From Longimicrobiales bacterium (lineage in GTDB: Bacteria; Gemmatimonadota; Gemmatimonadetes; Longimicrobiales; Gaopeijiaceae), in NCBI GenBank assembly GCA_965202985.1, contig CBDBCF010000001.1, forward strand, positions 2,336,001-2,400,000: a DNA stretch of 64,000 nt. Reading direction: 5' to 3'. Made by a program: the position numbers. Below are positions 27,001 to 42,000 of this stretch, piece by piece. Each line of letters begins with the position of its first letter. The first letter of the stretch is position 1.

Positions 27001-30000
27001 CACTTGGCCCAGGTCGATGCGATCGAGGGGCGGGATGTGATAGTGGTCCGCAGGCGCCACCGGGCCGGTCGTGTTGAAGAATCGCATGGGGCAACTTGGC
27101 CGAGGGCTGGGCTGCGTTGCAAAAAGCGGGTCGCCGACTTCGATTGGCCTCAGTTGCCGAACGCTCGCCGGCGGAGCTGCCGTTCCAGGCGCTGGGCCGC
27201 GTAGCCCGCCAGCGGCTCCAGCAGGTCGGCCGCCAGGGCGGTTGCCGGGAGGTCGCCGCCGCGAGGGTTCAGGTCGTCCAGGAAGAAGGCGGCGGAGAAC
27301 CCCAGAGTGGGACCGGCGCCGGGCGACGTGCCGTTCTGTCCGGGGGTGGCGGACTCCAGCAGGCGCGTCGGCGGGACGCCCAGCACGCCCGCCTCGAGTG
27401 CCGACGCGACGGGACAGGCCGAGAACCAGTCGCGATGCAGGCGAGACGCTCGGCGGCCGGCTTCGGGGGGGACCACGAGCACGCCCAGCACCAGCACGGA
27501 TCCTTCCCGAGTCGCAGTCCGGTCGCGCAGGGGCACGGAGACGGCGGGAGTGCCCGTCTTGGCGAAGACGTACACGTCGTGGTCCTCGGCGCCGGGGACC
27601 GATCGGATCGCCGATTCGAAGCGCCGGACCGCCGGGACGATGCGGGCCGCTGTGCCGCCGGGGCCGGCCACCTGCTCCATGGCGTGGAGCACGCGACGAC
27701 GGGCGCCGGGGTGGAGCACGTCTTCCGGCAACGGTTCGGGCGCCTCGCGGGCGGTGCTGGAGCGGGGGTCCGCCACGATCCGGCCGCGCACGTCCCGGCC
27801 CGTCATCAGGCGCGCTGTGGCCTCGGCGAGCTGGAAGTTGCTCCAGCGCGAGTTCTCGCCGCCCAGCAGCAGGTTCACCCAGTCGCGGCGCAGCTCCTCG
27901 ATCGTGTTCAGCGCCAAGTTCGTGACCTGGGGCGACACGGCGGAGAAGCGAAGCGCCGTGTGCACCGGGTTGGCCGTGTCTCCGGCGGCCCGCAGCGTCT
28001 CGATCGGGCCGCGCCACAGGTCCAGCCGGTAGCGGCCGGCTCGGTAGGCGTCGTCCAGGCCGGCGGAGATGGCGGTCGAGGGCGTGCGGTCGCGGTAGAC
28101 GGCGCCGCCGGTCAGCCGCTCCAGGGGCAGAGCCGGGGCGAAGCGGTCGCCGACCAGGCGCAGGTCGCCGCATGTCCTGCCCGTGAAAGGGAGGTCGTCC
28201 GAGAGCACCAACCGGACCACTTGGTCGCAGAAGCGCACTTCGCGGCCGGGGGGCTCGGGGGCTGGGCTTGCCGAGTCGGCCTCGCCCGGACCGCTCGCAG
28301 GGCCTGCCGTGCCCGCTTCGCTCGCTTGGCTTGCCTCGCCAGTCGCACCTGCCGAGTCGGTCGCCTGCGCCGCGCCCACTGCGTCCGCTAAGCACTCGGC
28401 CAGTCCCCTGCCGCCCGCTCGGCACTCGGCCGCGTCCCCACCGCCGGCCGTGCTGGCCAACAACGCGACGGTGGCCACTTCCACCATGTACCGGTTGCAC
28501 GATGTGCGAAGGAACGCTTCCAGTCCCTCCCATCCGTCGTGTCCCGCGGACCCGTAGGGCACTGGCAGGGCGCACCCGAAGACGTCTTCGACGGGCGCGA
28601 CGGCGTGGGGCGAGATCTCCAGGTCCAGCAGAGCGGGGAAGGCGGTGGCGATCGACGCGGCCCAGAACGGCTTCAGCGCCGAGCCGCCGGGATGGAGGGC
28701 GAAGTTCTGGTTGCGCAGGTACCGGGAACGCAGGCGGCGGGCCAGGTGGCCGTAGTCGTCCAGGGTCGCTTCGCCGGGGCAAGTGGGCATCGCCAGCACG
28801 TCTCCGCCAAAGGCGTCCATCACCAGCGCCGACACGGCCCGAGGCCGACCGGGCAGGCGCTGCCGTTCGCACCAGCGGTCCACGACGGCCTGCGTCGCGG
28901 TCTCCAGGTCGCGGTCCAGGGTCAGCCGCACCTCCATGCGCGAGACGAGGCCGCCGTCTCGGGCCGAGGGCGTGGATTGCAGGCCGCCCTCCATCGCCTG
29001 GGCCAAGTCGCGCACGAAGGGCGTCAAGTGGGGGACCAGATGCCGTCTCTGGGCGCCGTTCCCCGGGGCCACGGCCGACACCAGGCCGGCCCGGTCCGAA
29101 CCGTCCACCAAGTATGTGAAGACCTGGCTCCGGTGCTCGAACTGCACCCAGTCTCCCGACTCCAGACGCGCGATGCGCCCCGGCGGCATGGCGAACCCGT
29201 TGAGCCGCAAGTGCGAAGGCGCGCCCACGTCGCGGCGGTCGGCCAGGACGGGTTCGTCGCCCACGAAGAACGCCTCCGCCAGCACCTCCGGGCTGCGCGG
29301 CGCCTGGAAGCGCAGGAACGCCGTGCGGGCCGAAGCCTCCCCCCGCGACAGGCTTGCCCGCTGGCTGCGTGTGGCGTCCAAGGCCTCCAAGGGGTGAACC
29401 ACGTTCAGGCGCTGATCCCGCCCGCCCCGGAAGGCAGCGCTTTGGCCGGCGCGCGCGAAGCGAACGGGCCCGGTCCAGCGGGGTACTCGGTTGTAGGGCA
29501 GGTCCACGCGGTGGTAGAAGGGGTCCACGCCCAGCAGGCGGCAGCCGTCCACCAGGAAGGGCGACCGGGCGGCGGACGGGTCGGCGTTGAAGCGGCGCAC
29601 GTCGGCGCGGAGGTAGCTGGAGCGGAAGAAGCGCTCGTCGGGGGTGCCGGGGGCCAGGCGGACGACGATGGAGTCACGGGCGCCGCAGCGCAGTTCCAGC
29701 CCGCCGTTGCCGACGATCGCGTTGGCTCGGCTGACGAAGCCTTCCGGCGCCCAGTATCCGGCCGGCTCTTCCTGAAGCGCCGCAACGACGATCAGGGCAG
29801 CCAGGCCAAGGGCGAGCCACCTCGCGGATCGCGTCGTCATCGGGCGCTCCCAGGAGTCGAGGCGTCCGAGCCCTTGGCCTGCGCCTGCGCCATCGCCGCC
29901 GCCGCCAAGCCCAGCACAGCTAGCGCTTCAAGGGTGTCGCCCAGGGAATCGAGGCCCAGCAGGTAGACGTTCTTGCCCGTGAACAGCGCCCAGCCGTAGT

Positions 30001-39000: not shown

Positions 39001-42000
39001 CGCCGCGCTTCGAACCGCTTCCGCGACGGCCTCTCCGGCGTCTTCGCGGATCGCCTTCAGAGTCTGGCGGTAGAGCGCCGTCATCTCCTGTTCGCGCTCG
39101 TAGGTCTCCTGTTCGCGCTTCATGGTTCCAGTCGCTCCGGCGAGAGGACGAAGGAGAACGACGATCCGCGGGGCAGGACGGCATCCAAGTCCGCAACCCC
39201 GAGCTGTTCCAGAAGCGCGGCCCGAGCGGACTGGTTGTTCTCCAGGTGATAAAGGCGCAGCACGTCGCGGGCGGTCATGTCCCAGGGCGCCGCCACGGTG
39301 GCCGTGTCCCGGCCCGCCATGAACGTCGCGGCCAACTCGGAGGCGTCGTTGAACGAGACGACCGAGGCCAAGGGGCTTGTCTCCGTGCTCACCATCGCCG
39401 CTTCCCGCAGCGCCGGTCCGAACGCCCGCCCAAGCAGATAGGCGACGCCGCACGCCGCAACCGCCGCCGCGCACCGGCCCGCCCGTACGAGCCGGGTCTT
39501 CAACGAGGGCCAAGCGTCAGTGCGCCGGGCGTCCTTCGTTTCCCTCATCGGCCATTCCTCCCCACCTTGCACAATCGCTACCGTTGGCCTGTCTTCCTAC
39601 GAAGCCGGCCCGGCGCTCGTTTCCCGCGTCCCGCAAAGAGCCATGGCAACTCCCGCTCGCCGCCTTTCGCTTTCCTTCGGCCCGGCCCTGTGCGTCGCCC
39701 TGGCTCTGGCGTCCGCCTTGGCGCCGGTCCTGGCCTTCGCCGCCGTTGCCGCTCAGCAGCGTCGCGCCTACCCCGCCGCCGCTCACGGGGGGAACTACAT
39801 GCACAACTTCTACCTGCCGCCGGCCGCCGCCTCCACGCCCTGGTACCCGACGTGGCACCCGAGCGGCGAAACCCTGGCCGTGGCGATGAGCGGCTCGATC
39901 TGGGAGGTGGACCCTGCGACCGGAACGGCCACGGAGATCGTGCACGGCCCCAAGTACTACTCGTCGCCGACCTTTTCCCCCGACGGCGTTTGGCTGGCCT
40001 ACACCGCCGACGACAACGGACGCGCCATCGGGCTGGAGGTGCTGAACACTGCCACCGGCGAACGCCGTGTCCTGATCGACGACGAACACGTTTACGCGGA
40101 CCCCCGCTTCTCGCCGGACGGCGGACGGATCGCCTATGTGTCCACGGCCCCCAGCGGCTACTTCAACGTGTACGTCCGGCCCTTCGCGGACGGTCGCTGG
40201 ACAGGTTCCGCCGAAGCCGTGACCAGCGACAACTCGTTCGGTCGCGATCGCTTGTACTTCGGGTCGTGGGACATGCACATCTCGCCCGCATGGCTTCCGA
40301 ACGGGAGCGAACTGCTGCTGGTGTCCAACCGGGACGTGGCCCTGGGCAGCGGCAACGTCTACCGCGTGCCCGCGCGGGCCGGGGGCATCGACGAGCGACA
40401 GGAAGTCCTGGACGAACAGACCCTCTACCGCACGCAACCCGACGTGGCCTACGACGGCAAGCGCTTCGTGTATTCGTCCACTTCCGGGGCCGCCGACCAG
40501 TTCCAGAACTTGTACGTCCAGCCCACCGTCGGGGGCGAGCCGTACAAGCTGACGTTCTTCCAGCACGACGCCTTTCATCCGCGCTGGTCGCCGGACGCGG
40601 AATGGATCGCGTTCGTGGCCAACGAGGGCGGATTACCCCAGTTGCACCTGCTCGAGACCAACGGCGGCGCCTTGCGCAAGATCGAGATGCGGGAACGACG
40701 CTGGGCCAGGCCCACGGGAGTCCTGTCGGTGACAACCACGCTGGCGACCGGCGGCCCTTCGGCGGAAGCCGTGGCCAGCCGCGTGCACTTGACGGCGTCC
40801 GACGGCAAGTTCTACGCCCCGGTGGACGCATATGCCCGAGTCAGCCGCGCCGGCGACCGGATCTTTCACCACCCGGGCAGCTTCACGGTGGAGCTGCCCG
40901 TAGGCTTGGCCGAGCTGACGATCGTCCGCGGGTTCGAGACCGTGCCGGCTACGTTCGAGGCCGAGATCGAGGCGGGCGACACGACCACGGTGGAAGTCGC
41001 GCTGGAAGAACTGTCGGACGTGTCGGACGAAGGCTGGTTCTCCGGCTCCACGCATGTGCACATGAACTACGCCGGCAACTTGCGCAACACGCTGTCCAAC
41101 CTGATGGCGATGTCGGCGGCCGAGGACCAGGACGTCGTGAACGAGCAGGTCGCCAACAAGGACAACCGCGTGCTGGACCACCAGTACTGGCTGCCCGGCG
41201 GCGGCCCGCATCCGCTGTCCGAGCCCGATCGCGTGCTCGTCGTGGGACAGGAGTATCGTCCGCCGTTCTACGGCCACGTCTTCATGTTCGGACACCGGGA
41301 CCACCTGATTTCGCCCTACGCCACCGGCTACGAAGGCACGGCGATCGAAAGCCTGTACCCGAGCAACACCGACATGCTGCGCAAGGCCAAGGCCCAAGGC
41401 GCCACGACCGGATACGTGCACTCTTTCTACAACGGCGATCCGCTGGACGGGAACCTGGGCGGCGCCAAGGGGTTCGTCGTGGACGCTGCGCTGGCGGCCG
41501 CGGACGCGGTGGAATGGTCCACGCCCCAGGACGGTTGGCCGCCCTTGTACGCAGTGTGGAGCAACGGCATCCGCACCGCGGTCGTGGGCGGCGAGGACTC
41601 GATATCCAGCCTGCACGCCACGCCGCTCGTGGGCTCGATGCGGACGTACGTGCGGACGCCCGACGGCTCGCTGTCGATGGAAGGGTGGTTCCGGGGGCTG
41701 CGCGAGGGCCGAGCCTACGTGAGTTCGGGGCCGCTGCTGGAGTTCGCGGTGGCCGGCCAGGGGCCCGGAGGCCAGGTGGAGCTGGACGCGCCGGGGCAGG
41801 TTGCGGTGCGGGCGCGCGTGTGGAGCATCGTGCCGCTGGCGCGCGCCGAGCTGGTGTGGAACGGCGAAGTGGTGCAAAGCTGGGAGTTCGCCGGCGACCG
41901 GAAGACGCTGACCGTGGACGAGCGGCTGGACGTGCCCGGCAGCGGCTGGGCGCACCTTCGGGTCGAGGGTTATCCCGAGGAGCGCTGGCCTCTGGACACC

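Follow-up and report, generated by a model that had tools for sequence, protein, structure and literature searches.

A predicted SEDS-like and class-B-PBP-like pair encoded together with DO-GTPase-like and GAP1-like proteins in a Longimicrobiales bacterium

What might a bacterium do with seven coupled genes whose products escape the curated family models? The question is raised by a 64-kb window (the whole stretch of DNA analysed, 64,000 nucleotides) from a Longimicrobiales bacterium, in which seven co-directional minus-strand genes, g01901 to g01907, modelled with GC3 frame plots and start-codon lists, lie at 27150-39548. At five of the six gene junctions, stop and start codons overlap by 4 nt (four ATGA, one GTGA), and at the remaining one the genes lie 2 nt apart; no match above cut-off was obtained for any of the seven proteins in scans of Pfam and NCBIfam, and at E <= 1 Pfam returned no family for g01901, g01902 or g01905, which bears out the coupled operon lacking Pfam and NCBIfam families put forward in a preliminary description. 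The locus joins a SEDS-like/class-B-PBP-like pair to a GTP-driven switch; several phyla share this combination, and every curated family model tried misses it. Our best reading, to which we give a probability of about 0.55, is that of a GTP-switch-gated accessory peptidoglycan-type (envelope) synthase machine. The genes and two domains of g01902 are:

27150-29840, minus strand: g01901, 896 aa, class-B-PBP-like (bPBP-like)
29837-32977, minus strand: g01902, 1046 aa, SEDS-like
29873-31555, minus strand: predicted SEDS-fold domain of g01902, residues 475-1035 (structural alignment, VIA-align)
31613-32830, minus strand: beta-rich domain of g01902 with a putative FHA-like beta-sandwich, residues ~50-455 (structural search)
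32974-34995, minus strand: g01903, 673 aa, start GTG, TPR-like membrane protein
34998-36413, minus strand: g01904, 471 aa, GTPase, DO-GTPase-like
36410-38494, minus strand: g01905, 694 aa, start GTG, GAP1-like
38491-39123, minus strand: g01906, 210 aa, predicted bitopic membrane protein
39120-39548, minus strand: g01907, 142 aa, opens the operon and is preceded by GGAGG

The putative polymerase, g01902, begins with two N-terminal transmembrane (TM) helices, followed by a beta-rich domain and a further single TM helix, after which comes a membrane domain of SEDS fold that contains inserted helices and disordered loops (782-823 and 858-890). A hydropathy scan finds the 12 TM-like segments previously proposed. 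In its AF2 model (pLDDT 81.6, pTM 0.84), residues 475-1035 are predicted to adopt the SEDS fold, with a wide margin over every other fold: VIA-align gives Z 19.5 for E. coli RodA 8tj3_B (rmsd 4.1, 308 of 341 residues), 17.9 for FtsW 8bh1_A and 17.2-18.0 for T. thermophilus RodA, while the highest Z of an unrelated chain, out of 48,161 searched, is 9.8, so that the SEDS likeness first suspected is upheld by predicted structure. The next related match after SEDS proteins is WaaL (Z 8.8-9.2 over 315-320 residues), and the best two Foldseek matches are FtsW (E 9e-3). For the beta-rich domain, which, from the start of the SEDS alignment and the loop charges, probably lies in the periplasm, a wide structural search lists at least 12 FHA-domain rows in its best 50 (82-94 residues aligned, rmsd 2.5-3.3), with Z values (6.5-8.2) of a size that can arise by chance.

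At the sequence level, HMMER draws no link between the g01902 family and canonical SEDS proteins, with neither a Pfam PF01098 match nor a PDB sequence match. The family profile matched only 622 proteins (representatives at 50% identity; best 150 of the 622 inspected) among 1.84 billion, a number suggesting that canonical SEDS proteins are not drawn in by it. Comparison of the C-terminal part with 32 SEDS sequences by hhalign reached E 2.1e-4 at a probability of 46%; across runs, probabilities span 11-46% and E-values for the C-terminal part 2.1e-4 to 5.5e-4. Residues E670, P687, D740-x-G742, G914, N993, F999-T-G-K-N1003, S1011, D1014 and E1017 are invariant family-wide, position 931 is acidic (E or D) throughout the aligned members, and GxGxG-like and TG motifs are present. 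The conserved acidic and Gly positions sit where SEDS motifs sit and, like FTGKN, are kept across phyla and predicted to face periplasmic loops. For E. coli RodA, excerpts of one study describe D262 (ERHTDF) as catalytic and D159 (QPDLGT) as belonging to the active-site cluster (PMC10449877); the g01902 residue paired with D262 varies by alignment run (E931, H932 or a gap), the pairing of D740 with D159 rests on non-significant alignments (probability 0.1-0.4%), and the SEDS motif QPSE-K, as it reads in E. coli RodA, has no obvious counterpart. Canonical SEDS sequence motifs are recognisable only in part.

The partner protein, g01901, consists of a TM anchor (residues 5-23), a non-catalytic N-terminal domain and a transpeptidase domain (~304-886) that holds about 260 aa of insertions. 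Its AF2 model (pLDDT 86.2, pTM 0.84) gave 356 Foldseek matches in the PDB at E <= 1e-3, the best 50 of which comprise PBPs and transpeptidase domains only, almost without exception of class B, and VIA aligns it with P. aeruginosa PBP3 5df7_B at Z 29.8 (rmsd 3.4, 378 residues aligned, model 118..886 against chain 58..557), thereby covering pedestal and transpeptidase. The family profile finds N. gonorrhoeae PBP2 among PDB sequences at E 3.9e-6. Active-site motifs S387-x-x-K390 and S447-x-N449 are invariant over 47 sequences, as claimed earlier, and K761-T762-G763, also said to be invariant, is only nearly so; in a wider alignment of 15 sequences, each of the 14 full-length relatives, which represent three phyla, has all three motifs, the 15th being truncated. 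On predicted fold and conserved triad, the proposed class-B-PBP likeness is borne out, and g01901 is modelled as a full class-B PBP fold with an intact active-site triad.

The genes for g01902 and g01901 overlap by 4 nt, and in 21 of 24 related loci the two are neighbours. Prediction of their complex scored 0.54 (best of three controls, 0.00), with at least 75% of contacts shared between runs and partner pLDDT of at least 76. Of 157 solved complexes, 116 attain the tool's mark, as do 2 of 215 mismatched pairs; 18 of the 157 and both of these mismatched pairs do so at a score of 0.60 or lower. The counts apply here only approximately, since custom alignments were used. Because RodA-PBP2 and FtsW-FtsI complexes are already solved, this pass may reflect likeness and not binding, and we take it as a weak pointer to a physical complex. 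Canonical FtsW/FtsI and RodA/PBP2 are encoded elsewhere in the genome, and therefore the pair is, as previously stated, additional to them.

Upstream of the pair, g01903 has TM-like segments (20-38 and 619-637) flanking a helical TPR-like domain of ~580 aa that probably lies in the periplasm; its own TPR matches are weak and sub-threshold (Pfam, E <= 1), and those of its orthologues are stronger (for example, TPR_9 at E 1.3e-7, TPR_2 at 27.2 bits with a cut-off of 27). After ~130 aa of low-complexity N-terminus, g01904 shows a TRAFAC-type GTPase domain with G147-x4-G152-K153-T, D198-x-x-G201-E202 and S-K331-x-D333; GxxxxGK[TS], DxxGE and [ST]KxD are invariant in 12 family sequences, including the Acanthopleuribacter orthologue. 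Its profile matches IF-2 and Der weakly in the PDB (E 0.005-0.01), in the Atlas it lies next to MMR_HSR1 and DO-GTPase1/2 clusters (0.90-0.93), and Pfam DO-GTPase2 matches its orthologues only, below cut-off (E 0.0043 and 0.045). The protein g01905 itself has no Pfam match; its Acidobacteriota positional orthologues exceed the Pfam cut-offs for GAP1-N2 (38.8 bits, cut-off 24) and GAP1-M (25.8, cut-off 24), and GAP1-M is sub-threshold in three Gemmatimonadota orthologues (E 8.3e-4, 0.013 and 0.018). From sequence, g01905 is presumably a soluble GAP1-like protein (GTPase-associated protein 1) and the partner of g01904. The GTPase of the preliminary description does belong to the conserved module; its label "Ras-like" was rejected in favour of DO-GTPase/GAP1-like, the two proteins matching the pair that excerpts of Kaur et al. 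2020 describe as the core of conflict systems (PMC7159879).

A five-gene core (GAP1-like protein, GTPase, TPR membrane protein, SEDS-like and bPBP-like proteins) recurs in Acidobacteriota, its order kept in nine Gemmatimonadota loci with 5-7 of the genes and in six Acidobacteriota loci. Between the two phyla, hhalign supports the module partners at 79-97.8% (97.8%, E 1.2e-12, for the GTPase; 96.4%, E 1.3e-9, for g01903; 79%, E 1.6e-5 over 204 columns, for g01905), cross-family controls giving 0.1-0.3%. In the betaproteobacterium Pseudoduganella, the SEDS-like/bPBP-like pair has just upstream a GTPase of the g01904 family (hhalign 93-95%). The part to which this GTPase is fused is laid out like g01903, with ~400 residues between two TM-like segments, an arrangement that speaks for GTPase action at the membrane. 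Achromatium and Phaeospirillum have the SEDS-like protein alone. With such a distribution, the machine cannot be called lineage-restricted, as it had been.

In the synthase machine that we favour, the enzymatic core would be a fold-level homologue of SEDS/class-B-PBP peptidoglycan synthases. At the outer face of the membrane, g01902 would polymerise a lipid-linked disaccharide-peptide into glycan strands, and g01901, held beside it by its N-terminal helix, would cross-link stem peptides via an acyl-enzyme on S387, with g01903 and the FHA-like domain of g01902 as possible scaffolds or activators. A cytoplasmic GTP switch of g01904 and g01905 would set the timing or the location of core activity, presumably by way of the membrane-spanning partners, and g01906 and g01907 may be small lineage-specific add-ons.

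The main rival, which we consider unlikely although it deserves serious attention, is a GTPase-centric biological-conflict (anti-phage or anti-invader) system, in which the DO-GTPase/GAP1 pair would sense an invader and release or activate the SEDS-like/bPBP-like/TPR trio as effector arm, perhaps thickening or sealing the wall or draining Lipid II as an abortive response; its enzymology may be identical to that of an accessory synthase, and its biological purpose would differ. Besides the GAP1 domains of the g01905 orthologues, it can draw on the Walker B glutamate of g01904 and on the N-terminal zinc ribbon of one Acidobacteriota GTPase orthologue, the former a hallmark of DO-GTPases and the latter present in 60% of them according to excerpts of PMC7159879. 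The module also occurs patchily, even in close relatives, with 5 of 401 genomes in the phylum and 2 of 24 within one genus carrying it, a distribution that speaks against a core morphogenetic role. The operon's G+C content is unusually high (99.3rd percentile of the contig), and in the Acanthopleuribacter cluster G+C is 41-47% over the 5' half, compared with 55-59% in the flanking DNA. However, PADLOC found nothing in the seven proteins and eight orthologues save one weak match (mad8, E 0.0056), the usual effectors, such as a nuclease, protease or pore-former, are absent from the module, and the flanking genes (S9 peptidase, PD40 protein, AAA ATPase) are ordinary. The supposed effector arm is constant over two phyla and its active-site residues are conserved, unlike the variable pattern and the inactive enzyme domains stressed in those excerpts, where the conflict role is itself a prediction (PMC7159879); a literature search found no experimental follow-up.

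That g01902 polymerises or ligates another lipid-linked glycan (like O-antigen, capsule or S-layer glycan), and that g01901 is a peptidase or acyl-transferase whose substrate is not peptidoglycan, seems to us improbable. The fold common to SEDS proteins and O-antigen ligases, the partial motifs and extra periplasmic domains that could bind a different polymer would suit it, but SEDS proteins score double WaaL against g01902, no sugar-nucleotide or glycan-assembly genes adjoin the module in the window, and g01902 has as its obligate neighbour a class-B-PBP-type enzyme bearing the D,D-transpeptidase triad, a partner that is, to our knowledge, known for peptidoglycan synthases and not for O-antigen ligases. 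Very improbable, in our estimate, is a sensor in place of a synthase, modelled on BlaR1/MecR1, whose sensor domain binds beta-lactams: the PBP-like domain would bind beta-lactams or muropeptides and signal inward to the GTPase/GAP1 pair, the SEDS-like protein being a scaffold or Lipid II sensor. A serine-acyl-transferase fold with an intact triad could act as a covalent sensor, and the module does join periplasmic domains to a cytoplasmic switch; yet Pfam and NCBIfam scans reveal no output domain (DNA-binding, kinase, cyclase or protease), a passive scaffold would hardly require a whole SEDS fold with conserved positions kept across phyla, and g01901 matches class-B PBPs across pedestal and transpeptidase, more than a sensor domain.

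The two small proteins complete the operon. In g01906, the least conserved of the seven, a charged, helical N-terminal region is followed by a single TM-like segment (103-121) and then by a tail rich in Pro, Ser and Asp; the protein has nothing beyond chance-level matches in Pfam and NCBIfam, and tblastn matches it in 4 of 24 related loci. Its neighbour g01907, which has no match in Pfam or the PDB, combines a basic N-terminus and one moderately hydrophobic stretch with a conserved C-terminal part of ~90 aa, and is found by tblastn in 8 of the 24 loci, all in Gemmatimonadota.

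Gene models at 27150-39548 were chosen from third-position G+C (GC3) by frame and from lists of start codons, the raw ORF lists being full of spurious frames because the window has about 69% G+C. For each of seven minus-strand genes the GC3 frame plot and start codons support the model below, and the coordinates, lengths and motifs that the preliminary description had assigned to them were reproduced when the models were re-derived.

39120-39548, minus strand: g01907, small protein, first gene of the operon, GGAGG upstream
38491-39123, minus strand: g01906, small protein with one TM-like segment
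36410-38494, minus strand: g01905, GAP1-like protein
34998-36413, minus strand: g01904, putative GTPase
32974-34995, minus strand: g01903, TPR protein with two TM-like segments
29837-32977, minus strand: g01902, SEDS-like protein with 12 TM-like segments
27150-29840, minus strand: g01901, bPBP-like protein with one TM-like segment

At five of the six junctions the genes overlap by 4 nt (ATGA in four cases, GTGA in one), and the sixth is a 2-nt gap. None of the seven proteins has a match over any curated cut-off in Pfam or NCBIfam (both searched at E≤1), where g01903 obtains weak TPR matches and g01904 P-loop-only matches, all under cut-off. The G+C content of the operon (72.9%) stands at the 99.3rd percentile of 12.4-kb windows of the contig (mean 68.5%, sd 2.5), which hints at a foreign origin or an unusual amino-acid make-up.

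The last gene, g01901, has no match to PF00905 or PF03717 (Pfam, E≤1), and a single-sequence search of the PDB gives PBP3 of Acinetobacter as the sole match, at E 0.13 around GS-x-x-KP. The profile of alignment A1, which joins g01901 to 46 relatives (47, minus one 99% identical), finds N. gonorrhoeae PBP2 (E 3.9e-6), and its 51 PDB matches at E≤1 are, with few exceptions, class-B penicillin-binding proteins (bPBPs); the Acanthopleuribacter orthologue scores 22.1 bits against PF00905, exactly the cut-off, and another orthologue 20.1 bits. An AlphaFold2 model built on A1 (pLDDT 86.2, pTM 0.84) matches 356 PDB chains at E≤1e-3 in Foldseek; the best 50 consist without exception of PBPs and transpeptidase domains and are almost exclusively of class B. 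By VIA-align, this predicted model has the penicilloyl-serine transferase fold, with Z 28.6-29.8 to bPBPs (P. aeruginosa PBP3: Z 29.8, rmsd 3.4, 378 residues, model 118..886 on chain 58..557). Transpeptidase-only constructs align at Z of about 29 over 307-316 of their 316-327 residues, and since these near-complete constructs are spread over model residues 304..886, the catalytic domain would hold some 260 inserted residues. Alignments with full-length bPBPs begin at model residue 115-123, against 57-71 of the chain, so that part of the pedestal appears to be matched as well, and a hydropathy scan places a TM-like segment at 5-23. Among the 47 sequences of A1, S387, K390, S447 and N449 are invariant and K761, T762 and G763 occur in at least 90%; in a wider set of 15 sequences from Gemmatimonadota, Acidobacteriota and Pseudoduganella, SxxK, SxN and KTG are all present in 14 of 14 full-length members, the fifteenth being cut by the end of its ORF call. 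Such conservation is what an active acyl-serine enzyme shows and a decayed domain does not, and by its predicted fold and its active site g01901 is a class-B penicillin-binding protein.

The SEDS-like partner, g01902, is not recognised by family models either: it has no match to PF01098 (Pfam, E≤1), a six-frame search of its own genome with that model returns two canonical genes only, and the g01902 family profile finds no SEDS chain in the PDB, its sole match being a chance one to NPC1 (E 2.4). A model was predicted from alignment A2 (43 relatives, from 45 minus one 96% identical and one of 3% coverage) with pLDDT 81.6 and pTM 0.84. Its two best PDB matches in Foldseek are FtsW (E 9e-3 and 4e-2), with RodA also present and none at E≤1e-3. 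VIA-align places it on E. coli RodA (8tj3_B) with Z 19.5 and rmsd 4.1 over 308 of 341 residues (model 475..1035), and among the chains of the Foldseek list gives 18.0 for T. thermophilus RodA, 17.9 and 17.7 for FtsW, 9.2 for the O-antigen ligase WaaL and at most 7.8 for unrelated chains. A search independent of Foldseek, across 48,161 representative chains, ranks the same three SEDS entries at the top (19.5, 17.9, 17.2), followed by designed helical proteins (9.8) and WaaL (8.8). Chance may account for a Z below about 13 in helical membrane proteins, a level that the SEDS matches clearly exceed while spanning nine tenths of the target. In this predicted model, g01902 adopts the SEDS membrane fold, which has ten helices and a large periplasmic loop 4.

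Sequence comparison by hhalign aligns the C-terminal 220 residues of g01902 with 31-32 SEDS sequences (31 taken from Gemmatimonadota genomes, the 32nd being E. coli RodA) at E 2.1e-4 to 5.5e-4 and a probability of 30-46%, pairing GNWWGQGFLEG...REH...QWG...ANYG..FTG of g01902 with GGLRGKGWLHG...ERHTDF...EELG...NIGM..VVG of the SEDS proteins; segments 475-640 and 640-780 give no significant alignment with SEDS. In the E. coli RodA sequence, D262 is the D of ERHTDF and D159 that of QPDLGT, and Nygaard et al. (2023; PMC10449877) describe D262 as catalytic, with D159, R109-Q111 and S340-G343 around it. Across 32 sequences of the SEDS-like family from three phyla (alignment A5), the invariant columns are E670, P687, D740, G742, G914, N993, F999-T-G-K-N1003, S1011, D1014 and E1017, and position 931 is occupied by E in the Gemmatimonadota sequences and by D in the Acidobacteriota ones (local H-L-D-D). 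Acidic residues of the family may lie at the sites of D159 and D262; the partner of D262 is E931, H932 or a gap depending on the hhalign run (E 2e-4 to 3e-3), and D740-x-G742, invariant in the 32 sequences, pairs with PD159LG only in non-significant alignments (probability 0.1-0.4%). We therefore treat retention of the catalytic acid in g01902 as likely, not as fixed.

The structural alignment with RodA begins at model residue 475-480 on RodA residue 8-20, so that helix 481-506 would stand for SEDS TM1 with its cytoplasmic start; the strongly hydrophobic helix 457-476 would then enter from the periplasm, and the beta-rich domain (about 50-455) would accordingly lie outside. Between the first two helices, the basic loop RRSSPGRR is consistent with a cytoplasmic position, and helix 615-634, amphipathic and basic, was excluded from the TM count. 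At least 12 of the best 50 matches to g01902 among the 48,161 chains are FHA domains aligned with the beta-rich region (Z 6.5-8.2, 82-94 residues, rmsd 2.5-3.3), and the region may be an FHA-like sandwich, at Z values that can be chance; no phosphothreonine-binding signature was seen in it. A cytoplasmic loop of the SEDS-like domain, at about residues 775-827 (window 30500-30650), carries about three degenerate copies of a GANALAED-like repeat enriched in Ala, Asp, Glu and Gly; this repeat, predicted disordered, is variable in length and absent from most relatives. The basic N-terminus of g01903 is followed by a TM segment, a helical part of about 580 residues and another TM segment, a layout by which its TPR-like domain is probably periplasmic.

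The genes for g01902 and g01901 overlap by 4 nt, and in 21 of 24 related loci a PBP-like gene lies next to the SEDS-like one, the exceptions being L016, which ends too soon, and L018 and L021, which have no following PBP-like match. Prediction of a complex between g01902 455-1046 and g01901 1-400, each with its own custom alignment, gave scores of 0.54, 0.54 and 0.59 vs 0.00 for three controls, with at least 75% of contacts shared between runs and partner pLDDT of at least 76. Of 157 solved complexes, 116 reach the mark that these scores pass, and so do 2 of 215 mismatched pairs, counts that are rough where custom alignments are used; passing scores of 0.60 or less belong to 18 of the 157 solved complexes and to both mismatches. 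Because complexes of the same kind have already been solved, the pass may reflect likeness and not binding, and the prediction lends weak support to an association of g01902 with g01901.

Upstream of g01903, g01904 opens with about 130 low-complexity residues and continues with G-x4-GKT, D-x-x-G-E and S-K-x-D; G147, G152, K153, D198, G201, E202, K331 and D333 are invariant in 12 sequences, including that of Acanthopleuribacter (alignment A3). These are TRAFAC GTPase motifs in which a glutamate follows the Walker B DxxG, the trait of the DO-GTPases, which Kaur, Burroughs, Iyer and Aravind (eLife 2020; PMC7159879) describe in their main text as TRAFAC GTPases with a conserved Walker B glutamate, often preceded by a zinc ribbon, paired with GAP1 and often membrane-proximal. 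One Acidobacteriota orthologue of g01904 does carry an N-terminal zinc ribbon. The A3 profile weakly finds IF-2, Der and eIF5B in the PDB, and the Atlas neighbours of g01904, MMR_HSR1-type and DO-GTPase1/2 clusters at 0.90-0.93, serve as a lead only. In Pfam, g01904 has no match to the DO-GTPase models PF19975 and PF19993, and DO-GTPase2 matches orthologous GTPases below its cut-off (E 0.0043, 17.2 bits against a cut-off of 27; E 0.045). A profile search of a 5.8-billion-protein collection found 74 close relatives, none with a GTPase Pfam label, and PF19993 in 201 genomes of the phylum (including the unpublished G157 and G182) gave 34 matches, none over cut-off; the matches listed reach no further than position 89 of the 226-position model, and most of them stay within the first 25-30.

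The neighbouring g01905 has no Pfam family itself, the GAP1 models (PF20012, PF20013, PF20014) included, its profile finds in the PDB only a designed repeat protein (E 0.028), and its Atlas search was uninformative, with recognition under the mark and unnamed clusters. Proteins of about 740 aa in the same position in Acidobacteriota do pass Pfam, as GAP1-N2 (38.8 bits, locus L025) and GAP1-M (25.8 bits, L029), and four more loci (L024, L026, L028, L030) give sub-threshold GAP1-N1, GAP1-N2 and GAP1-M matches. Within the g01905 family (n=15, E≤0.5), GAP1-M is matched in five members, GAP1-N1 in five and GAP1-N2 in four, and GAP1-C was not found (Pfam); for three Gemmatimonadota orthologues GAP1-M is the sole Pfam match (E 8.3e-4, 0.013 and 0.018), the Gemmatimonadota scores for this model, 15.7-20 bits, being under the cut-off of 24. 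By hhalign, the Gemmatimonadota and Acidobacteriota families agree at 97.8% (E 1.2e-12) for the GTPases, 96.4% (E 1.3e-9) for the TPR proteins and 79% (E 1.6e-5) for g01905 and the GAP1-like proteins, where two of the nine g01905-side sequences have an in-frame stop owing to an error in the coordinates used; three cross-family controls gave 0.1-0.3%. A GTPase encoded beside a GAP1 protein is thus found directly in the Acidobacteriota loci, and in Gemmatimonadota the neighbour is recognized by profile alignment. With the Walker B glutamate, the GAP1-like neighbour and the zinc ribbon of one orthologue, g01904 and g01905 look like a divergent DO-GTPase/GAP1 pair, both members lying below Pfam cut-offs.

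In other genomes, all seven genes were found in four related loci (L007, L009, L010, L011), six in L012, L015 and L017, five in L013 and in L016, which ends inside g01902, and four in L020. Six Acidobacteriota loci, fetched with the g01902 family profile, have the five-gene core (GAP1-like, GTPase, TPR protein, SEDS-like, bPBP-like) behind a different first gene, and their genes upstream of the SEDS-like one agree with those of the window in size and order. Neither g01906 nor g01907 is related by hhalign to the first gene of the Acidobacteriota clusters, and neither Pfam nor the PDB supports reading the C-terminal part of g01907 as LysM-like. The whole module occurs in a cultured acidobacterium, Acanthopleuribacter pedis KCTC 12899 (NZ_JAFREP010000014.1; L024 1-13300), in the order 483-aa unknown, GAP1-like, GTPase, TPR protein, SEDS-like, bPBP-like. 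Its first four genes there have 41-47% G+C vs 55-59% downstream, and the 5' half is 10-15 points below the flank. In Pseudoduganella umbonata CECT 7753 (L027 4252-7008), the GTPase (hhalign 93-95%) is fused to a C-terminal part whose two TM-like segments are separated by about 400 residues, as in the g01903 layout, and the fusion lies directly upstream of SEDS-like and bPBP-like genes; hhalign detects no homology of its C-terminal half, or of a 563-aa neighbour, to g01903 or g01905. SEDS-like genes without a detectable bPBP-like gene after them were met at L021 7367-10576 (Candidatus Achromatium palustre) and L018 8015-11131, the genes upstream in Achromatium being housekeeping ones (UbiD, prolyl-tRNA synthetase-like, HisF-like), and the SEDS-like protein may also occur alone.

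Against 1.84 billion representatives, the A5 profile finds 622 proteins at E≤1e-3 (503 at 1e-10, 364 at 1e-30), and most of the best 150 of the 622 matches are full length. Ten proteins of the family were looked up, of which two are named, as 'hypothetical protein', one from Phaeospirillum. Within the phylum the family is rare, with at least 5 of 401 genomes (that of the window included), at least 4 of 148 genera and, in one genus, at least 2 of 24 genomes.

Known SEDS/bPBP synthases (RodA-PBP2, FtsW-FtsI; PDB 8tj3, 6pl5/6pl6, 8bh1, 8p1u) share with the module the predicted fold of the g01902 membrane domain (Z 17-19.5), the architecture of g01901 (TM anchor, N-terminal domain, transpeptidase with SxxK/SxN/KTG) and the adjacency and overlap of the two genes. 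The differences are large: g01902 is three times longer than a canonical SEDS protein, adding two N-terminal helices, a beta-rich domain of 400 aa, a further TM helix, helical insertions and long disordered loops; the transpeptidase of g01901 has its roughly 260 extra residues; the partners are a TPR membrane protein and GTPase/GAP1 instead of MreCD/MreB or FtsQLB/FtsN; and the distribution is patchy. WaaL (PDB 7tpg/7tpj), whose distantly related membrane fold aligns over 315-320 residues of g01902, reaches only Z 8.8-9.2 vs 17-19.5 for SEDS and, unlike g01902, has no PBP partner. With the DO-GTPase/GAP1 systems, as the main text of Kaur et al. (PMC7159879) presents them, the module shares a TRAFAC GTPase with Walker B DxxGE adjoining a large GAP1-type protein, TM-containing partners and, in one orthologue, the zinc ribbon, and that text links such systems to the membrane and cell wall. 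It differs from them in that the GAP1-like gene lies upstream of the GTPase, where the 'typical' GAP1 is downstream, in its single GTPase, and in the SEDS-like/bPBP-like/TPR trio that takes the place of any FNIII, GASH, EAD, tubulin, HSP70 or kinase partner. The same main text has no mention of transpeptidase, FtsW, RodA, SEDS, penicillin, lactamase, Acidobacteria or Gemmatimonad, and two of its supplementary files lack Transpeptidase, FtsW, FTSW_RODA, Acanthopleuribacter, Gemmatimonad and lactamase, while its other supplements may list such neighbourhoods. Non-canonical SEDS and bPBP architectures were surveyed by Garcia-del Portillo et al. (Microlife 2025; PMC12516126), who according to their main text retrieved proteins via InterPro/Pfam PF01098, PF00905 and PF03717, so that a family without those matches could not appear; GTPases are not mentioned in that main text. 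The literature searched on SEDS, Acanthopleuribacter wall enzymes and GTPase-centric systems holds no description of the module.

What the module is for can be read in two ways. Its constant composition across phyla, its intact active sites and the lack of a classical effector or PADLOC match (PADLOC on the module proteins gave none apart from one weak match) favour a dedicated synthase; the patchy, compositionally foreign distribution and the kinship with DO-GTPase/GAP1 favour a role in conflict or stress response. The two are compatible at the level of mechanism, which would most parsimoniously be one where a GTP switch in the cytoplasm gates a SEDS-type polymerase and a bPBP-type transpeptidase with their periplasmic scaffolds. 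We give a probability of roughly 0.3 to a third, structurally distinct class of SEDS/bPBP synthase that would be gated by DO-GTPase/GAP1 from the cytoplasm and would act on demand, upon infection, envelope damage or differentiation, and not in routine growth. If true, this would be the first enzymatic output for DO-GTPase/GAP1 systems, known in the literature searched only from a computational study, and the first case of a SEDS polymerase controlled by a nucleotide switch that the same operon encodes. We rate the module as a very divergent new variant of the SEDS/bPBP machine, with a switch not previously linked to it in the literature examined.

SEDS/bPBP pairs are core wall-building enzymes of bacteria and targets of beta-lactams. 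Here a Pfam-invisible SEDS-like family is spread over at least three phyla, and surveys that rely on Pfam/InterPro models, as the main text of PMC12516126 describes for its own, cannot see its 622 representatives at 50% identity. Should the pair be active, peptidoglycan synthases would be incompletely catalogued, SEDS enzymes would be able to bear extensive periplasmic domains and to withstand the replacement of most of their signature motifs, and a GTPase/GAP1 switch so far only predicted for conflict systems would be wired to wall synthesis. The two cultured carriers, A. pedis KCTC 12899 and P. umbonata CECT 7753, make the module a testable entry into DO-GTPase/GAP1 function, the former being a possible experimental host.

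The surroundings of the operon are ordinary (AAA_22/AAA_35 ATPase, S9 peptidase, PD40-repeat protein, UvrD-type helicase), and the flanking genes are not conserved beside the module in other genomes, its closest relative excepted. On the same strand, 62 nt after g01901, 25480-27087 (minus strand) encodes a 535-aa AAA_22/AAA_35 ATPase, and downstream of it 23246-25426 (minus strand) encodes an S9 prolyl-oligopeptidase-type protein with PD40 repeats. On the other side, the divergent plus-strand PD40-repeat gene probably starts at ATG 39643, not at GTG 39520, which leaves about 94 nt between the divergent starts. A promoter scan of the operon gave no promoter-like site, and there is no sigma-70-like site between those starts; the two terminator-like sites observed, both within g01902, compare with a chance expectation of 5.2 and are uninformative. 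Among the public runs listed as containing window 29600-39548, none is RNA; the DNA runs are from sponge metagenomes (five runs, two studies, 0.45-0.75 of sampled words) and also from marine metagenomes, at up to 0.22 of sampled words.
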